NCBI GenBank assembly: GCA_965217585.1
Contig: OZ244561.1
Location: 4,672,001 to 4,736,000, forward strand
DNA from: Candidatus Latescibacterota bacterium
GTDB lineage: Bacteria > Latescibacterota > UBA2968 > UBA8231
DNA length: 64,000 bases
Direction of reading: 5' to 3'
Under the pieces are notes generated by a model that was given only the letters and a program-made list of their open reading frames with translations, was not told where the DNA came from and made no database searches. Position numbers and translations under genes: made by a program. Shown here in pieces: positions 31,477-62,279 of the stretch (the stretch's first letter is position 1; each line of letters starts with the position of its first letter).

Positions 31477-31614
31477 CTCTAAGCCCTATTAGAATGTAAA
31501 CGCTGCATTTTCCCAGCAGCTAAGCGGGTTTCTACGGCTCGACCCATATTTCGTCCTCCTTTTACAGCGATGACAGACGGCATTTTTCTTTTGCCCGGCA
31601 GCTCTAATCTTCCT

Positions 31615-33387
31615 ATGAAGCTTTTATCGAGGAGTATCCAGTTGGTCTGCGCGTTGCTGTGGGCTGCCTGCGGTCCGGAAGAACCTTCAGCCCCGGCTCC
31701 GACGCCCGAGTATACTAAAGCACCGACCGCCGACTACGCGGTGGGGCGCGGGCGGAAAGAGGCCCCTGCGGTGCGCTTTGTCGATGTGACGCGAGAGGCT
31801 GGTCTCGAATTCAGGCACGAGACTGGTGCGCGCGGCGACAAGTGGATGCCGGAAACCATGGGTAGCGGCTGCGCGCTTTTTGATTACGATGGGGACGGCT
31901 GGCTGGATGTGCTTTTGGTCAACAGCGAGGGGTGGCAGGGCGAAAAGGCTCCCGGCAAGCTCTACCGCAATCTCGGCAACGGCACTTTTGCCGACGCAAC
32001 GGAACGCGCTGGCCTAGGTTTTTCTGTCTATGGCATGGGCGCGACGATTGCCGACTACGATGCCGATGGCGACCCGGATATCTACCTGACGACCTTGGGG
32101 CCGAACCTGCTCTTGCGCAACGACGCGGGTCGCTTCGTCGATGTGGCGCGGGAAGCGGGCGTGGCGGGCGTGGTCTGGCGCGACGATGCGGGTAATGAGA
32201 ATCCCGAGTGGTCCACGGGCGCGGCCTGGGTTGATGTGGATGGCGACGGCTGGCTGGATCTGTTGGTCACCAACTACGTGCATTGGTCTCCCAGCACCGA
32301 CATATACACTACGCAAGATGGCAAGGGAAAGTCCTACGCCACGCCACAGCAGTACCCCGGCTCGACGCCGAGGCTCTACCGCAATCTGGGTGAGGGCCGC
32401 TTCCGGGAGATAACCAAAGAGGCCGGTCTGTTATTGCCCGAGGGCAAATCCATGGGCGTGGCCATGACCGACTTTGAAGACGACGGCCGCATCGACTTGG
32501 TCGTCACCAACGACACCCAGCCCAATTTCCTGTTGCAAAACTTAGGTGGGGGTCGCTTTGCGGAGCGGGGGCTCGCCGCGGGCATTGGCTACGATGAGAG
32601 CGGGCGGGCGCGAGCGGGGATGGGCATAGATATCGCATCGGTCGCCAACGACGGCGTGCTTTCCATCGCCATTGGCAACTTCAGCCGCGAGGCGCTCTCA
32701 CTCTACCGCCAAGCTGGCGGCGAGGTTTTCGTCGATGGCGCAGGTGGGGCTAGACTGATGCAGGCGACGCTGCGGCCGTTGACCTTTGGGCTGCGCTTTT
32801 TCGACTACGATCTCGACGGCTACCAAGACCTGATTTTGGCCAATGGGCACATCGAGCCAGAGATCAACTCGACGCAGAAGGAGATCGAGTACCGTCAACC
32901 ACCGCAGTTGTTTTGGAATACCGGCGACGGGCGGATGGTCGAGGTGTCGGAGCAGACGGGCGGGCCATTTCTCAAGCCAGTGGTGGCGCGAGGGCTGTCC
33001 GTCGGCGATATCGACGCAGACGGCGACTTGGACGTGCTGCTGACGACCAATGGCGGTCCGGCTTATCTATTGCGCAACGAGGGGCCGACCGGTCGCGCGG
33101 TGGCGCTCGATCTGACGGGCAAGGTACCTAATCGAGACGCTATTGGCGCGAGGGTGACTGCGCAGGTGGGCGAACAGGAGCAGGTGTTCATGGTGCGCAC
33201 GGGATCTTCCTATTTGAGCCACAGTCCGACGACCCTGACCGTTGGCTTGGGAGCCGCCGAGCAGATCGACCGCTTGGAGATTCGCTGGCCGGATGGGACG
33301 GTGGAAGCCCTTGAACAGCTTGCGGCTGGTGCGAGCTACGAAATCGCGCAGGGTGAGGGTATTGTGGGGCAGAGGGCCTTTCAATAG
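31615..33387 (+). CDS. CRTAC1-family FG-GAP + ASPIC/UnbV protein, likely lipoprotein
   Basis: LWAAC lipobox-like motif; repeated DYDGDGxxD; NRDAIGARV, GSSYLS, GLG, IRWPDG. Confidence 0.9.
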   Translation: MKLLSRSIQLVCALLWAACGPEEPSAPAPTPEYTKAPTADYAVGRGRKEAPAVRFVDVTREAGLEFRHETGARGDKWMPETMGSGCALFDYDGDGWLDVLLVNSEGWQGEKAPGKLYRNLGNGTFADATERAGLGFSVYGMGATIADYDADGDPDIYLTTLGPNLLLRNDAGRFVDVAREAGVAGVVWRDDAGNENPEWSTGAAWVDVDGDGWLDLLVTNYVHWSPSTDIYTTQDGKGKSYATPQQYPGSTPRLYRNLGEGRFREITKEAGLLLPEGKSMGVAMTDFEDDGRIDLVVTNDTQPNFLLQNLGGGRFAERGLAAGIGYDESGRARAGMGIDIASVANDGVLSIAIGNFSREALSLYRQAGGEVFVDGAGGARLMQATLRPLTFGLRFFDYDLDGYQDLILANGHIEPEINSTQKEIEYRQPPQLFWNTGDGRMVEVSEQTGGPFLKPVVARGLSVGDIDADGDLDVLLTTNGGPAYLLRNEGPTGRAVALDLTGKVPNRDAIGARVTAQVGEQEQVFMVRTGSSYLSHSPTTLTVGLGAAEQIDRLEIRWPDGTVEALEQLAAGASYEIAQGEGIVGQRAFQ

Positions 33388-51125: not shown

Positions 51126-52016
51126 ATGATATTCACCGATGCGCAGTTGGCCCAGTACGAAGAGCAGGGCGCCGTGACCATCGACAGCCCCTTCACCACC
51201 GAGCAGTTGGACAGAGCAGAGGCGGCGTGGGACCGCTTGCGTCACCAAGGCGGTGAACCGTACGAGGATCCGGATTACATCGAAGTCATCGAGCACCCGT
51301 ACTTTGAGGAGGTGGCCAAAAAGCTGCTGCGCGCCGATGCGGTCCATCTGTGGTGGGGCCTGGCCCCCCACGAGCGGGCCCCGGCCTCAGCGCCGTACGC
51401 CGATCCCCGCCAGCAGTGGGCGCGCGGGTGCCACGTGGACATCCAGGCCACGCTGGAGGATTTTGCGGCCACCCCCCGCCGGATGCGGGCCGAGTTGTGG
51501 TTCTGGCTCAACGATGTGCCCGCGCACCGCGGTGCCATGCGCATCCTGCCCGGCAGCCACCGCCCCATCATGGCGCACTGGAGTCGGGTCCTCCGGCCCG
51601 AGCACAAAGCCGAACTGCCCCGCGTGCACGGCCTGCGGCCGGCTCCAGTCCCGTCGACTGCGCCCGCTTTCCCCGAGTACATCCCGGACCTGGGCGAAAG
51701 GCCCTGGCTCGAGTGCGAGCCCATCCCCGCAGTGGCGCGCCGGGGACAGATCTTGGTGCTCTGCAGCGCCGGACTGCACGCGGCCTGGCAGAATGAGGAC
51801 ACCGTGCCCCGCAAAGCCATGGGCACCTCGTGGATCGCCGCCGGAGTTTCGTGCGGCCTGCCCAAGAACCAGCGCGACGCCCTGATGGACTTCTTCCCCC
51901 GGCTGCGGCGCCAACTGCGCCCGGACCGCGCCCACATTGTGCCGGATCATTTCGACTGGCTCTTTGAAAGCGACTACGATCCGCGCTGGCCGGAGACTTT
52001 TCCGCCCTCCCATTGA
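51126..52016 (+). CDS. Phytanoyl-CoA dioxygenase (PhyH) family
   Basis: QYEEQG, HVD facial triad, GAMRILPGSH, LHAAWQN...R. Confidence 0.88.
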   Translation: MIFTDAQLAQYEEQGAVTIDSPFTTEQLDRAEAAWDRLRHQGGEPYEDPDYIEVIEHPYFEEVAKKLLRADAVHLWWGLAPHERAPASAPYADPRQQWARGCHVDIQATLEDFAATPRRMRAELWFWLNDVPAHRGAMRILPGSHRPIMAHWSRVLRPEHKAELPRVHGLRPAPVPSTAPAFPEYIPDLGERPWLECEPIPAVARRGQILVLCSAGLHAAWQNEDTVPRKAMGTSWIAAGVSCGLPKNQRDALMDFFPRLRRQLRPDRAHIVPDHFDWLFESDYDPRWPETFPPSH

Positions 52017-54760
52017 GCAGTTGTCCCGACCCGCCTAGAGGGCTAACGCTGATCGCCGTCGCAGTCGGCCTCCTATTCTCGTCGCCTTTTGGTGCATTCG
52101 CAATGGATCGCATTTCCACGGCAATTGGAGCGTGGCCCATGTATCGCGGCGACACCCGCCTCACGGGACGGGCCGTCCTGCCGGGGGCCATGCGCAAAGC
52201 GCCCGTCGTGGCCTGGCAATACCCGATCGAGGCGGGCCAAGTGTGGGCGGCCGTGCACGCGGCAACCAGGTCCTCGCCGGCGACGAGCGCCGGGCCCGAG
52301 CAATTCACCCCGCCCCACCGCCGCGCTGCCGAGGACCGGCAATGGGGCCTTGGGCCCCGCTTGGTCGATCTGTACGGCAACGGCCAGTTGGTGCCCGATC
52401 CGGGTCGGGCGGCTGCGCTGTTGCCCGAGGTCCCCGGGCTGCAGACAGTTGAATTTCCACTGGTTCCGGACGCTCCCGGGACCGATTCGAGGCAAGTGGT
52501 CTGCTATGCCCACGAGGCGGGCCGGAAGCGGGAAATATGGCGGTCGGAGATATTCCACACTGTCCAGAACACCAACTTTGTCGTCGCCGACATAGATGGC
52601 GACGGCCGACTCGAAATCGCCTTTGCGCCCCACTACCGGATCATTGTCCTCGACGGGCAGAGCGGCCGCACCAAGCACCTGCTCAACATGCACGGCCTGC
52701 GCAACTACGGTTTCTTCTGCGCCACCGACATAGATGGCGACGGCCGGCTGGATTTTGTCGTTATCGCCGACTTTGCCATGCACATCGACGTGGTCAAAAA
52801 CGAGGGGGATCGGCTAAGGCTGCTGTGGCGGCGCGATATCGAGCAAAATATCCAGAGCAAGAGCCGCATCATTCGCCCCGGGCCCAATCCAGTGCAGGAC
52901 CTCGACGGCGATGGCCGCATCGAGATTATCTTCAACCTTTTCAACGAGCGGGACGACGGCCAATGGCATGTAGTCGCCTGCGACGCGCTCACCGGCGAGA
53001 CCGTGCTCGACCTGCCGCGGCAATACCTCCACGGCACCGCCGATGTCGATGGCGACGGCGTGCCCGAACTCTTTGTTTCTCGCAGCGCGGGACTGCTGGT
53101 GCCCACCAATGCCGCGCTGAGCCTCCTGCGCGTTGATGGCGAGTCGGCCATACCCCTGTGGCACCATGCGCGTGGACAGTGGGTAACAGCGGCGACCGAG
53201 CTGCCCCCCACCCACTCGACCATTGTGGCGCGCGGCACCGACGATATAGTGACTGCGTCCCTGGCGGCTTCCGGCCAGCGTGGCTTTTTCACCGTTGAAA
53301 TTAGAGACAATCGGACTGAACTCTTGCGCGCCTTTGTCCTCGACCGCGCCGGGGGCACCGAGGTCCGCACCGCGCAGGTGTGGAGCTTCGACCTTCCGGC
53401 CCGCTCCCGGATGCAATGGCGGGCCTCCGCCGATATAGACGGCGATGGGGTCGACGAGGTACTCGTCAGCTTCCACCAGACGCACGGCGCAATAGCTGAA
53501 TTGGGTGCCGCAGAGGGTGCCCGGATCCGCGCTCTGCGCCTGGAGCGCACAGGAGCTGCCGGCACCCCTGGCACGGACGGATCGGGCATGCAGACGCGGC
53601 CGGTAGCCGTGGCAGCTAGCAGCCGCCAGCCAACCCGAGTGATCTTCGAAGGAGCCAATCGCCACCTCGCAGCGCTGGAGCCGCCGCGGATCCAAGGAGA
53701 TCCGGCGCTACTGCGCTGGCGCCTGCCGGGAGCCGGACCAGCCCTCATCGCCGAGCTAGACGGCGACGGCCGGCCCGAGGTGGTGTACGCGGATCAGACG
53801 ACCTCCGGAGAGGGTGAAATAGTCGCCGCCGACCTCGACGGCAAGCCGCGCTGGCACCGACGGGTGGCGGGTTTTCCCGGTCCCCATCCGCCGTGGAATT
53901 TCGGCGGGATTACTAGCTGGTGGGTCGGACGCTACAACGACACCGAGCGCGACGATATATGGGTCTCCGCCCGCCGCAGCACCATGCACAGCGACGAAGC
54001 TTGGGTATTGCGGGGCACGGATGGCGAGCCTCTGTGGCACCTGCGCGAAGTGCGCACTGACCAGACCGGAGCGGGCGCAAGAGGTTGGGGGGCTGGGGGC
54101 TCTTTCGTGGCTTCGGCCGATGTCGACGGCGATGGCCTGGAGGATGTCATCGGCCTGTATCCGGTCAATTACATGGCCGCCCGCGGCACCACTGGTGCCC
54201 TGGTCCACTCCATATCCGCGGCCAGCGGTCTGTTCGCCGGTGTCTGGGCCGCCTATTGCCAGCCGATGGTGGCCGACTTCAATGGCGACGGCCGCGAGGA
54301 ACTGCTGTGGTGCGGTCCCTACCACCACGGGCTCACCACCTTGGACGCCAGCGTACTCTGGTACCACGCCGGTGGAGCCGGCATGGCCGGCGTCGGCGAT
54401 GTCGATGGCGACGGCCGTTTGGAGTTGGGCATCACCGGCTGGGAAAAGGGCGAGGGCCTGCGCTGTCTGGACGCGGCCACTGGAGCGGAGAAATGGCATT
54501 GGCCTCTGCCGGGCAATGCGCGGACTGCGGTCTACTCCGCCGACATCGACGGCAATGGCCGGGATGAATTTCTCTTTGCGGTCGAGCAGACGCTCTACGC
54601 GGTCGGCGACCGCGACGACGCACCGCATCTGAGGTGGCAGCTGGACTTGCCCACGAGGCCGGGCGATCTGACCCTGGCCGATGTCGACGGCGACGGCGAG
54701 ATCGAAATCCTCTTCATAGGCGAGGACTCCGTCCTCTACTGCCTCGATTCCGCCCGCTGA
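52013..54760 (+). CDS. Large FG-GAP/VCBS-repeat beta-propeller protein, probably exported
   Basis: About 11 D(I/V/L)DGDGxxE/D repeats; hydrophobic N-terminus; WPMYRGD...TG. Confidence 0.85.
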   Translation: MSSCPDPPRGLTLIAVAVGLLFSSPFGAFAMDRISTAIGAWPMYRGDTRLTGRAVLPGAMRKAPVVAWQYPIEAGQVWAAVHAATRSSPATSAGPEQFTPPHRRAAEDRQWGLGPRLVDLYGNGQLVPDPGRAAALLPEVPGLQTVEFPLVPDAPGTDSRQVVCYAHEAGRKREIWRSEIFHTVQNTNFVVADIDGDGRLEIAFAPHYRIIVLDGQSGRTKHLLNMHGLRNYGFFCATDIDGDGRLDFVVIADFAMHIDVVKNEGDRLRLLWRRDIEQNIQSKSRIIRPGPNPVQDLDGDGRIEIIFNLFNERDDGQWHVVACDALTGETVLDLPRQYLHGTADVDGDGVPELFVSRSAGLLVPTNAALSLLRVDGESAIPLWHHARGQWVTAATELPPTHSTIVARGTDDIVTASLAASGQRGFFTVEIRDNRTELLRAFVLDRAGGTEVRTAQVWSFDLPARSRMQWRASADIDGDGVDEVLVSFHQTHGAIAELGAAEGARIRALRLERTGAAGTPGTDGSGMQTRPVAVAASSRQPTRVIFEGANRHLAALEPPRIQGDPALLRWRLPGAGPALIAELDGDGRPEVVYADQTTSGEGEIVAADLDGKPRWHRRVAGFPGPHPPWNFGGITSWWVGRYNDTERDDIWVSARRSTMHSDEAWVLRGTDGEPLWHLREVRTDQTGAGARGWGAGGSFVASADVDGDGLEDVIGLYPVNYMAARGTTGALVHSISAASGLFAGVWAAYCQPMVADFNGDGREELLWCGPYHHGLTTLDASVLWYHAGGAGMAGVGDVDGDGRLELGITGWEKGEGLRCLDAATGAEKWHWPLPGNARTAVYSADIDGNGRDEFLFAVEQTLYAVGDRDDAPHLRWQLDLPTRPGDLTLADVDGDGEIEILFIGEDSVLYCLDSAR

Positions 54761-58799: not shown

Positions 58800-61460
58800 G
58801 TGCGCCCAGTGACCAATCGTCCGCGCGTCGCCGTGCGCCTCGCCGGTGCGGCCCTGCTGCTCGGTGGCTTGGCCTTCAATCCGCTGGCCCTCGCGCATTT
58901 TTCCCCAGGGCATCCGCTTAGCACCGAGGGTGTCATCGTTCTCCAGATCGCCTTGATTCTTGGCGGCGGTTGGCTCGTTTGGCGATGCCCCCGGCTACCG
59001 CTGGTTCCGATTGTGCTCGTCGCTCTCGCCTTTGGCGCGCTGGCCATTATCGGGGGATACAGTACGGTCCGCTCACTGCAAACGGTGCAGGAACGCAACC
59101 GGCTCTTGGCGACTATTGACCGCAGCGAAGAGGTGCAGCAGCACCTGAGCGGCGAGGCCCTGCCGCTTCTCGCCTTGGGGATGTACCAAGGCCAATTACC
59201 CGCCGCGCCGGCTCGTGCGCTTTTTGCCGCCACGGTCGTTGTCGCGGACGTGGAGCAGACAGCAGAGGCGACCGAAGTCGTCCCGGCGTTGGGCATTAAG
59301 CGCCAGCGCTGGCGGATCGCACCCGCCGCGCAGTTGCGCGGCTCGGACCTCCAGCTATGGGGGCCGCTCTTGGCTGCGGTGCATTCCTGCGACTATGCGG
59401 CCTTCCATATTGAGAGCGGGCATTTCCTCGACGAGGGGGAGGCGATCTATCAAGCCCGCTTGCGCTTTGACGCCTCGGCGCAGACACAAGACGGGGAGCG
59501 CGCGCAAATTCGGGCTTGGCTAATGCTGGATTGGCAGCGACAGGAAGATGCCACTTGGCGGATTCAGCGCTGGGAGACCGAATCGCTGGAGATGCTCACG
59601 CGGGCGCACGCGCTGTTTGCCGAAGTCCTCGACGAGGCACTTCCGCGCGACGAGGCCCGCGCCCGGGCTCGGTTTTCGCGCCACGCCGAACTGGTGCGCC
59701 AGTCGTTTAGCGACTCCGCGTTTGTCGCACCGCATCGCTATTTCACCCGCCAAGCTTTTGACCGCCATCCCGGCATCAGCGTCGTGGATATCGACGCCGA
59801 TGGGTACGACGACCTATACATTGCCGTGCGCCGGGGTAGGAACATGCTGTTGCACAATGGCGGCGACGGCACGTTCACCGAGCGCGCGGCCCAATACGGT
59901 CTCGATGTGGAGCACCACACCGCGGCTGCGCTCTTCGCCGACTTTGACAACGACGGCGACCCGGATGTCTTCCTCGGCCGCACGCTCGCGCCCAGCCGCT
60001 ACTTGGTCAACGAAGACGGGCACTTCGCTTCCCGCGACTTGGGCGATGGCGTCTTGCCGTTTCTCGTGGCCTCGATTTCAGCGGCCGATTACGACGGCGA
60101 TGGCCTGCTCGATGTGTACTTTTCCACGTATGCCGCGCGGATGTTGCTCGAAGCGGTCACCACCGCGTCTCACGCAGGAACGCTGTTGGCCGACTTCCTG
60201 CCTGCGGACCACGCTCGCACACTCTACGACCTGAGCCGCGACCGCATCGGCCACCTCATCCACGATGCGCCCGGGCCGCCCAATGTCCTGCTGCGCAACC
60301 TCGGCAACGGTCGCTTCGCACCCACCGCCGCGGTGTGGCGCAATACGTTACAGGCGACCTGGGCCGACTACGACCGCGACGGCGACCCGGATCTCTACCT
60401 CGCCAACGATTTTGCTGCCAACAACTTGCTCCGCAACGACGGCGGTGCCCTCGTCGATGTCACCGCCGCGAGCGGGGTTGCGGATCCGGGTTTTGGCATG
60501 GGTGCGAGTTGGGCCGATTACGATGGGGATGGCCGCCAAGACCTGTATGTAACCAACATGCACAGCAGCGCCGGTCTCCGCATCACGGCAGCCGCTGGGC
60601 GGGCGGGCGCGGCGTTTGCCCCTTTGGCTCGGGGCAACTCCCTCCTGAGGAACGGCCGCGCAGGCTTCACCCGAGTTGCAGATTCGACCGTGGAGGACGG
60701 CGGCTGGGGCTGGGGCGGCCAATTTTTGGACTTTGACAACGACGGCGACCTCGACATCTACACCCTGAGTGGCTACTACACCCCGCCGGCCGCAGTCGCT
60801 CTTCCCGAAGATACCTGAAGCCTGTTTTGGCGCACGGTCGTGCGCCATGGCCGGACCGATGGGGCGTACAACGTGGGAGCGCGGCTCGACGCTGGGGCCT
60901 CGCTCAGCGGATACCAGCGCAACCGCTTATTCCTCAATGTAGAAGGCCGCGATTTTATTGACCTGTCGGGCCTGTCAGCGGCGGATTCGCCGGCGGATGG
61001 CCGCGCCTTCGCCACCTTGGACTTCGACCGCGATGGCCGCATTGATTTGGCCGTCGTCAATGCCAACGAGCCGTTCTGCGAGTTGTTTGCGAACCGGAGC
61101 AAGGCGGGGCACATCCTCGCGTTGCGCTTTGTGGGAGGTAACGACCGCGACGAGGTCTCGCGCGAGTGGAGCGTGCGCGATGGGTATGGTGTCTCGGTTG
61201 AAGTAGATGTCGGCGGGAGGACGCTGTTGCGCGAGCATCGGGCTGGCGAGGGCTTCTCGGCCCAGAACAGCGCGACCTTGATCGTCGGCTTGGGCGCACA
61301 TCAACGAGCGGATGCCGTGCGCGTGCGTTGGCCTTCGGGACGCACCCAGCGCGCAACTGATGTGGGGGCTGGGGTGCTGTTGACTGTGTACGAAAACTCT
61401 CGGTACTCGCCTACGGGGGCGGCGTTTGTTGTGGTGCCGTACCGCAGCGGAGAGCCGTAA
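58800..61460 (+). CDS. Membrane-anchored CRTAC1/FG-GAP + ASPIC/UnbV protein with in-frame UGA (candidate selenocysteine, U673; 886 aa)
   Basis: ORFs 58800-60818 and 60840-61460 are in the same frame, separated only by TGA; domain continuity; SECIS-like hairpin downstream. Confidence 0.8.
60816..60851 (+). promoter_or_regulatory. Putative bacterial SECIS element
   Basis: TGA, then stem TGGCGCAC / GTGCGCCA (60828-60847) with a GGTC loop starting 17 nt after the codon; possible GCC/GGC lower stem. Confidence 0.75.
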
Positions 61461-61640: not shown

Positions 61641-61976
61641 TTGAGGCTACCCAACGCACAATATGCCCGAGTTCAAAGAGAAAAAATCACAGACTATCTG
61701 CTCTCAACAACTAGTCCCGATAGCCGAAGCAAGGCTGAATTCTTTTTTCGATTCGGCTTTCGCGTGGATCAGTGGCATAGCTTAGCGGACGCATTACGGG
61801 TTCAGGGAACAAGCTATGAAGTGGTCAGTATTGTAGAAACCGGCTACGGTATAAAGTATGTTGTAGATGGATCGCTTGAGACTTCCGATGGGCGCAACCC
61901 ATGTGTTAGGACGGTCTGGCAGATTGACAGAGGAAGCGACTATCCTAGGTTCATTACGGCATATCCGGCTGATTAG
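61641..61976 (+). CDS. DUF6883-like putative toxin
   Basis: KITDYLL, SKAEFF..FGF, YGIKY, RTVWQ, PRFITAYP. Confidence 0.75.
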   Translation: MRLPNAQYARVQREKITDYLLSTTSPDSRSKAEFFFRFGFRVDQWHSLADALRVQGTSYEVVSIVETGYGIKYVVDGSLETSDGRNPCVRTVWQIDRGSDYPRFITAYPAD

Positions 61977-61985
61977 GAGGCAAAT

Positions 61986-62279
61986 ATGTTCAAGGAATTA
62001 GACGCTATCGTGCTTACAACCGAAATTCCGTTCGATCGCATTTGGGATGTCCCACCCGGCAGCCCGCTCATTGAAAACGGCAAGCTGGGAAAAGGGCTGA
62101 AAGCCGGCGACGTCGGCACGATTGTGTATGTGCAGGGCAACGGAGAGGCCTTTGAGGTGGAGTTTCTGAAATCGGATGGCTACACGGTCGCCATTGCCAC
62201 CGTTTTGGCCTCTCAAGCGCGACTGGCAACCAGCGAGGACTGCGCCAACTATCGCTTCTCGATGAAGACTCCTGCCTAA
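61986..62279 (+). CDS. DUF4926-like putative antitoxin/immunity protein
   Basis: MFKELD.IVL, GLKAGDVGTIV, AFEVEF..DG.T.A; RBS AGGAGG. Confidence 0.75.
   Translation: MFKELDAIVLTTEIPFDRIWDVPPGSPLIENGKLGKGLKAGDVGTIVYVQGNGEAFEVEFLKSDGYTVAIATVLASQARLATSEDCANYRFSMKTPA

Follow-up and report, generated by a model that had tools for sequence, protein, structure and literature searches.

A CRTAC1-like propeller gene of a Latescibacterota bacterium very probably reads an in-frame UGA as selenocysteine

Two open reading frames (ORFs) in a 64,000-nucleotide stretch of the genome of a Candidatus Latescibacterota bacterium (contig OZ244561.1, positions 4,672,001 to 4,736,000; hereafter the window) share one frame and are separated by a single TGA codon. 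Does this codon end a gene, or is it read as selenocysteine (Sec) within a longer one? The first ORF (58800-60818, + strand) begins at a GTG, encodes 672 amino acids and ends at the TGA at 60816-60818; the ORF list and the translation agree with a preliminary description of the locus that this codon is the sole in-frame interruption before the second ORF (60840-61460). When the TGA is read through, the product has 886 residues, with Sec at position 673 (U673) in the context ...ALPEDT-U-SLFWRTVVRH..., and the frame closes at the TAA at 61458-61460. The same description held that the second ORF has no ribosome binding site and carries the last FG-GAP repeat with the ASPIC/UnbV domain. Indeed, inspection of the sequence upstream of its GTG at 60840 revealed no Shine-Dalgarno-like purine run, and Pfam places UnbV_ASPIC at residues 796-859 of the read-through protein. 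TGA is the normal terminator of 3 of the 12 window ORFs checked, so the genetic code is not reassigned, in agreement with the preliminary description. As far as sequence can settle the matter, we consider it very likely that the UGA is read as Sec and that the two ORFs are one gene with a selenocysteine insertion sequence (SECIS) element.

A six-frame search of 41 related genomes, in which stop codons were translated through, yielded 21 full-length orthologs from the same genus (67-100% identity). Each has only one TGA, and in all 21 it falls in one shared alignment column, with the protein conserved on both sides of it. Measured against the window copy, the ratio of nonsynonymous to synonymous differences per site (pN/pS) was 0.11-0.27 downstream of the TGA and 0.21-0.38 upstream, with pS reaching 0.68 among the orthologs. 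Such low downstream ratios at this level of synonymous change mean that the downstream part is translated in this frame and is under selection; judged from these values, purifying selection beyond the TGA appears to be at least as strong as before it. The codon is also intact in two independent DNA contigs from a public run that bridge it (0 and 8 differences, respectively, none in the codon), which argues against an assembly error.

It should be noted that, in one ortholog at 72% identity (L043; G015:C161), the match holds a TAA besides the TGA. Its product ends a few residues before the C-terminus of the window protein, and the TAA is therefore probably the gene's own stop, slightly earlier than that of the window gene. 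In P0132, a cluster representative for the C-terminal part of the orthologs, the first 20 residues cross the TGA region in another frame (…RIPEALFWRTVVRH…), which suggests a one-base indel beside the Sec codon in at least one public assembly.

The TGA is found well beyond this genus. In a wider alignment, drawn from 168 genomes of the phylum and 20 additional regions that we fetched, it occupies the Sec column in 27 of 33 rows, including other genera, two further families and another class (33-52% identity), and the consensus around it is D-x-U-[SA]-x-[FVI]-W-[RQL]-x-V-[VL]. The motif was also turned into a degenerate nucleotide pattern and scanned over one genome per species. Among the matches listed, 78 of 80 loci are true homologs spanning the TGA column (29-55% identity) and two are chance matches; the record titles of the 78 name Acidobacteriota, Planctomycetota, Verrucomicrobiota, Latescibacterota, a Gammaproteobacteria metagenome-assembled genome (MAG) and a Cytophagia MAG.

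Proteins of 660-680 residues that end at the TGA are all that represents the orthologs in a collection of 5.8 billion proteins. Some are labelled 'VCBS repeat-containing protein', one is an unnamed fragment, and the MAGs are labelled Gemmatimonadota or Latescibacteria by their submitters. Short proteins make up 113 of the best 150 matches among cluster representatives (50% identity), and most of them begin MR[ST]D... or VRTD..., at Val or Met codons 3-10 residues past the TGA column; they are therefore the C-terminal halves of Sec forms. The family is widespread, with at least 120 genomic stretches matching the pattern and, among the best 150 matches, more than 100 clusters consisting of C-terminal fragments. 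Gene callers split its genes in two, so the selenoproteomes of Acidobacteriota, Planctomycetota, Verrucomicrobiota, Latescibacterota and others are undercounted.

The genome, searched as one contig of 7.32 Mb, has all four components of the Sec machinery. Hits to selA (574.8 bits), selB (340.6 bits), selD (375.4 bits) and selC, the tRNA-Sec gene (70.1 bits; called SeC, anticodon tca, by ARAGORN), all lie above curated cut-offs, and the selD gene is of the Sec type, carrying an in-frame TGA of its own. As selB is present in 39 of the 41 related genomes, its co-occurrence does not separate TGA forms from the others, and it was dropped as a discriminator. Five further genes each carry one in-frame TGA where Sec is classically found: three of the AhpC/TSA type (U-x-x-C), one FdhA-like (SRA-U-HAP) and one SelD. 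A second apparent 'TGA' paralog of the propeller gene, at C1:1864773-1866464, was set aside, the TGA there being an ordinary stop.

Just downstream of the UGA lies a hairpin in which the preliminary description saw the SECIS element. Both sequence and fold bear out its geometry: the arms UGGCGCAC (60828-60835) and GUGCGCCA (60840-60847) form a perfect 8-bp stem with a GGUC loop, the stem beginning 9 nt and the loop 17 nt past the UGA. A scan of 60700-61000 against Rfam (E up to 10) returned only chance matches to TarB and Yar_3. Folding energy, with values given below, proved undecisive as a test in this GC-rich DNA, and we therefore relied on conservation. Across the 21 orthologs, 20 of 187 four-fold degenerate sites are invariant, three of them in the hairpin codons +5, +7 and +8. 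The hairpin is the most conserved 21-nt segment of the 3.2-kb alignment (18 of 21 positions invariant), starting 7-9 nt after the U of the UGA.

The same element can be followed through two groups of genes. All 24 genes of group A have the loop GGUC and keep the six inner pairs; the inner stem varies solely by G-C to G-U, in 9 genes, and by A-U to G-U, in one. Group B, which comprises 19 genes of several genera and has the motif WRHVLAS, has the stem UGGCGCCA/UGGCGUCG with a loop CGUG[C/U/G], and seven pairs are always kept. Two stem pairs differ on both sides between the groups and, in one group B gene, a C-G pair has become U-A, with both strands of the stem changed, consistent with compensatory change that preserves the hairpin. 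Other lineages have different stems at the same place (GCGGCA-AGUUG-UGUCGC and GGCUGU-CGUGUC-ACAGCC). The FdhA-like gene of the same genome has a 7-bp stem with a GGUCU loop, 1 nt farther from its UGA than that of the propeller gene. One of the AhpC-type TGA genes also has a hairpin, CUCUCG-CGUGC-CGAGAG, whose loop is identical to that of group B.

Which residue occupies the Sec column when the codon is a sense codon? The preliminary description had turned to a paralog in the window (31570-33387, + strand). This is indeed one unbroken CRTAC1-like chain of 605 amino acids with UnbV_ASPIC, but the site itself is not comparable: the insertion of about 50 residues that bears the Sec motif is missing from it (a gap in alignment A3). 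The paralog is therefore uninformative on the residue at the Sec site and was discarded as a guide. Elsewhere, Cys is found in L052, L054 and L062, which form one clade within the same genus (AQDYCTTFWTHDI), and in P0017, P0126 and P0158. In MAGs labelled Verrucomicrobiota and Methylomirabilota, most of the full-length relatives (43-48% identity) have Glu (DLESNLWRTMVR). Other residues seen in the column are Ser, Gly, Ala, Val, Asp, Thr, Asn, Gln and Pro (P0119). Neither Trp nor Arg is found in the column in any clear family member aligned. Sec seems to be the common state of the family and Cys a rare one, which is unusual, and Sec forms appear to far outnumber Cys forms.

Some of these relatives have features of their own. 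L054 (L054:902-3109, G000:C1) is a 735-residue paralog from the same genome as the window gene, with a signal-peptide-like N-terminus; it has no thioredoxin domain, and no hairpin is found behind its Cys codon. L049 (G030:C2) and L050 (G026:C72), from another family of the class, are thioredoxin-less Sec forms with U-S-C and U-A-C, respectively, in which the hairpin lies about 5 nt farther downstream.

Pfam assigns FG-GAP_3 (5.9e-37) and UnbV_ASPIC (PF07593; 1.2e-14) to the read-through protein, with FG-GAP repeats that span the break, and no NCBIfam family matches it. With FG-GAP repeats followed by UnbV_ASPIC and a fold like that of the solved CRTAC1, the protein belongs to the CRTAC1/ASPIC-UnbV family. 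An AlphaFold model built on a 43-row alignment (mean predicted local distance difference test score (pLDDT) 91.9; predicted template modelling score (pTM) 0.88) is made up of helices 7-25, 28-34 and 42-62, a long helix 68-130, an alpha/beta domain (136-304), a propeller (325-770) and a beta-sandwich (771-880). Codons 1-672 encode the three hydrophobic helices, the stalk helix, the alpha/beta domain and most of the FG-GAP propeller, and U673 opens helix 673-681 of the model. The Sec-bearing insertion lies between two strands of a late blade; from the propeller topology, we infer that it is on the top face. The top Foldseek match is murine CRTAC1 (9etn_A; E-value 7.3e-25, template modelling (TM) score 0.69 normalised to the target) and the second is aldos-2-ulose dehydratase (4a7y), a metal-dependent propeller enzyme.

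The alpha/beta domain, in which W187, W245 and W253 are nearly invariant (alignments A2 and A3), is common to the window protein and the signal-peptide-bearing Sec forms. It has no match in Pfam or NCBIfam; our guess, from the strand pattern of the model, would be an NTF2-like fold. Charge counts place positive charge at the N-terminus and in the loop 60-67, and by the positive-inside rule residues 89-886 are probably outside the cytoplasm.

A link to thiol chemistry is provided by the C-terminal tails of other family members. A C-terminal AhpC-TSA/Redoxin domain with a W-C-x-x-C motif is present in the group B Sec forms and in L092, which at 51% identity is the closest relative from beyond the genus, and the alignment profile over this domain matches ResA/TlpA structures at about 1e-13. 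In alignment A3, CxxC is present in 8 of 8 Sec forms with a tail and in the Cys form P0017; in 11 of 11 Glu forms with a tail the homologous domain is there, with the CxxC replaced (e.g. ATSNPAS). Among the short C-terminal fragments from the best 150 cluster representatives, 93 of 113 have CxxC. The co-occurrence of Sec and CxxC, and the loss of CxxC in the Glu clade, suggest that the family acts in redox processes outside the cytoplasm, and in its TlpA-fused members Sec is most likely a redox-active centre. The preliminary description had anticipated redox or metal chemistry; the CxxC domain fused to most Sec forms speaks for the former, but the window protein itself lacks this domain.

The column of Cys760, a residue conserved throughout group A, contains H, L, F, I, V, Q or Y across the 39 non-group-A rows of alignment A3; the six named relatives closest to the window protein have L, F, V or A there. 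Cys760 is private to the thioredoxin-less subfamily and is a candidate resolving cysteine. The genome also has 32 AhpC-TSA-family matches that could act in trans. Many of them belong to open frames 400-770 residues long, so that the complement of TlpA-like thiol-disulfide domains fused to other sequence is unusually large.

A number of observations weigh against our interpretation, or parts of it. None of the RNA-library contigs bridges the TGA; their coverage is confined to 60622-60786 and 60880-61238 and is possibly DNA carry-over, and they speak neither for nor against expression. The folding energy of the hairpin in its 71-nt context is unremarkable (z = -0.39 vs. shuffles), and the energy of the segment from +6 to +42 ranks 25th among the 878 codon positions of its own gene and from 10/926 to 211/814 in seven other Sec forms (one at 130/904), middling values overall. 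A stem of 5 bp or more whose loop contains GU follows the codon in 75 of 78 Sec forms (pattern loci among the matches listed) vs. 0 of 6 sense-codon homologs and 8,728 of 73,385 other in-frame positions of the same ORFs (11.9%). This contrast favours a SECIS element, but the search pattern had itself fixed TGGCG, which is part of the 5′ arm, and a GT at position 21, which gives the loop GU, so that only the complementary 3′ arm counts as free evidence in the 75 of 78. The hairpin also departs from that of E. coli fdhF, which, according to PMC8659212 (section 13), has its upper stem-loop 11 nt from the UGA, a bulged U17 and G23/U24 in the loop. A strict model with these three features does not describe the window hairpin: its spacer measures 9 nt, it lacks the bulged U17 and its register is offset by one. 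Thus, of the label 'fdhF-like' given to it earlier, the GU loop just 3′ of the UGA stands, while spacer, bulge and loop register do not agree with that description. Cys does occur at the aligned position in some homologs, but it is a minority state and Glu is the commonest residue among sense-codon homologs, which is unusual for a catalytic Sec. The window protein has no thioredoxin domain (Pfam) and no CxxC, ending 7 residues after the UnbV domain; the group A orthologs L040, L043 and L044 likewise have neither. No thioredoxin-like, DsbD-like or CcdA gene is found within 9 kb upstream or 2.5 kb downstream of the gene. Lastly, the Glu forms are one clade, and the joint loss of Sec and CxxC may therefore be a single event.

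How else could the UGA be explained? If a recent nonsense change, or an assembly error, had cut a CRTAC1-like gene, the downstream part would be decaying. The truncated product of 660-680 residues is the only one in databases, and the frame of P0132 indicates that indels exist in some assemblies. However, the retention of the TGA in every one of the 21 orthologs at such high pS with low downstream pN/pS, its presence in homologs of several phyla at 30-55% identity and the two independent DNA contigs that carry it leave this explanation with next to no probability. Translation might instead stop at the UGA and restart at GTG 60840 or nearby, with a 672-residue fragment and a 206-residue UnbV protein assembling afterwards and the hairpin serving in coupling or mRNA stability. 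The GTG is 7 codons past the TGA, the Val codon there is conserved and gene callers predict such ORFs across the family. Yet the S-x-F-W-R-x residues between TGA and GTG are among the best conserved of the family and this region is one chain in all sense-codon homologs, the GTG lacks a Shine-Dalgarno-like run, a split would cut both a propeller blade and the insertion in the model, and selB was found in every TGA-form genome where it was looked for; we regard two separate genes as highly improbable. Selenium-free readthrough, with Trp or Cys inserted by a near-cognate tRNA, or termination for the most part, with the full-length protein a minor isoform set by selenium supply, also strikes us as improbable. 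UGA is the leakiest stop codon and Sec insertion is often inefficient, so that both products may exist. Against this, the column never holds Trp or Arg in the clear family members aligned, and the hairpin, which resembles that of the FdhA-like gene, is positioned as SelB-binding elements are and shares their GU loop. That TGA has persisted over such divergence, and has not drifted to TGG or TGY, speaks for selection of Sec itself.

Our best explanation, to which we attach high confidence, is that the UGA is decoded as Sec to give an 886-residue, membrane-anchored propeller protein, for which a redox role is likely. The preliminary description had arrived at such a membrane-anchored propeller with Sec673, and the machinery, conservation, hairpin and model support it, with a topology that is probable from charge distribution. 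The hairpin would direct SelB and tRNA-Sec to decode the codon. The protein would consist, in order, of three membrane helices, a long stalk helix, the alpha/beta domain, the CRTAC1-like FG-GAP propeller and the UnbV/ASPIC sandwich. In most family members, Sec would be a redox-active centre recycled by the fused CxxC domain; in the window's subfamily, the TlpA-like domain would have been lost and Sec would be recycled by Cys760 or by a free TlpA-like protein. Sec could also be real and yet serve as a ligand for a metal or metalloid, or as a structural residue, rather than as a thiol-type redox centre. In sister clades, Sec gives way to Glu and Asp, both of which are typical metal ligands; DxDxDG cation loops abound in the propeller; and the second structural match is the metal-dependent aldos-2-ulose dehydratase (4a7y). 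We nevertheless think this unlikely: Sec co-occurs with the TlpA/ResA-like CxxC domain, the Glu clade has lost the CxxC in its homologous tail, and the site is also occupied by residues that are no metal ligands (Ser, Gly, Ala and Val). Redox-active Cys or Sec typically lies at the start of a helix, as U673 does in the model. A more specific version of the redox reading, which we put forward only tentatively, is that the subfamily is a self-contained membrane-anchored selenoenzyme outside the cytoplasm, in which Cys760, on a neighbouring blade, would have been recruited as resolving residue once the fused TlpA-like domain was lost, and Sec673 and Cys760 may cycle through a selenenylsulfide on the substrate-binding face of the propeller. 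If this were true, a beta-propeller would bear a redox active site with Sec, not Cys, as the usual state across the family; to our knowledge, the propeller fold has not been known to carry one.

Table 1. Features of the selenoprotein gene in window coordinates, and further in-frame-TGA genes of the genome (C1 coordinates).
Feature	Position	Strand	Basis
Selenoprotein gene, codons 1-672	58800..60815	+	ORF list, translation, Pfam FG-GAP_3 and FG-GAP, model
Three predicted transmembrane segments, residues ~14-32, 42-60, 66-88	58839..59063	+	Kyte-Doolittle windows, charge counts, model helices
Alpha/beta domain, residues 136-304	59205..59711	+	model secondary structure, pLDDT >90
FG-GAP beta-propeller, residues 325-770, DxDxDG loops	59772..61109	+	Pfam, model, Foldseek
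UGA codon, putative U673, first residue of helix 673-681	60816..60818	+	conservation, Sec machinery, model
Codons 674-886: remaining insertion, last propeller blade, UnbV/ASPIC beta-sandwich	60819..61457	+	translation, Pfam, pN/pS
Putative SECIS, extended lower stem with internal mismatches	60821..60854	+	minimum-free-energy fold; outer pairs less well kept
Putative SECIS, core hairpin: stem 60828-60835 / 60840-60847, loop GGUC 60836-60839	60828..60847	+	fold, conservation
Codon of Cys760	61077..61079	+	Cys in 21/21 group A orthologs
Five further in-frame-TGA genes	C1:337917-338285, 2235228-2235578, 4566181-4566519, 5609870-5610604, 1742908-1743831	-, +, -, -, +	

Just downstream of the selenoprotein gene, a DUF6883 gene (61641-61976, + strand) and a DUF4926 gene (61986-62279, + strand) adjoin each other and resemble a small two-gene module. 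The window also contains another FG-GAP protein of 915 amino acids (52013-54760, + strand), which weakly matches the propellers of carrageenase and rhamnogalacturonan lyase.

The majority of bacterial selenoproteins known so far are either redox proteins with a thioredoxin fold or enzymes of molybdenum or nickel. Here, Sec would sit on a CRTAC1-like beta-propeller, probably exposed outside the cytoplasm. The terms FG-GAP, ASPIC, CRTAC and propeller are absent from the main texts of a 2022 selenoprotein review (PMC9312934), the 2025 deep-Sep paper (PMC12013277), a 2026 selenoprotein review (PMC13188914) and the 2026 BSepDB paper (PMC13326102), and FG-GAP and UnbV are absent from the main text of a 2016 PLoS One paper (PMC4807772), which likewise gives no account of a motif, a hairpin, a distribution or a link to thioredoxin. 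Full-text literature searches on selenoproteins with FG-GAP, ASPIC/UnbV, CRTAC1, VCBS or propeller returned nothing relevant. The recoding mechanism is the classical bacterial one, and what is new relative to the main-text literature is the protein family, the Sec-bearing fold and the fact that Sec predominates and Cys is rare. The association of Sec with the TlpA-like CxxC, together with their joint loss in the Glu clade, offers a testable handle on the function of the CRTAC1/ASPIC-UnbV family, while the thioredoxin-less variant with its private Cys760 is a natural experiment on Sec recycling.

Three known systems bear comparison with this gene. Like E. coli fdhF, it has an in-frame UGA and, immediately behind it, a GC-rich hairpin whose apical loop contains GU, in a genome with a full set of selA, selB, selC and selD. 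The loop is G21 G22 U23 C24, with the G 21 nt after the U of the UGA, vs. 22 nt in fdhF as described in PMC8659212. We take the hairpin to work like the fdhF SECIS without being a strict copy of it. The window protein is unrelated to formate dehydrogenase.

Vertebrate CRTAC1 (9etn) shares the propeller and the UnbV/ASPIC sandwich, and is the only non-thioredoxin sequence match in the PDB below 1e-10. The two proteins are 17% identical and the profile alignment skips the Sec-bearing insertion, so that no CRTAC1 residue equivalent to Sec can be named. Pfam finds no EGF-like domain in the window protein. CRTAC1 is not a selenoprotein, nor is it known to be anchored in the membrane by N-terminal helices.

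The closest parallel is with the Sec-containing CRTAC1-like proteins that carry a TlpA-like domain. Their D-x-U-S-x-F-W-R-x-V motif and their hairpin occupy the places found in the window gene (alignment column and offset, respectively), and they too have an FG-GAP propeller with UnbV/ASPIC, preceded by a related alpha/beta domain. The window protein is 30-36% identical to group B and 51% to L092, the nearest thioredoxin-bearing form, and has three predicted membrane helices where the TlpA-fused Sec forms have a signal peptide. The window contributes a probably membrane-anchored, thioredoxin-less variant of the Sec propeller family.

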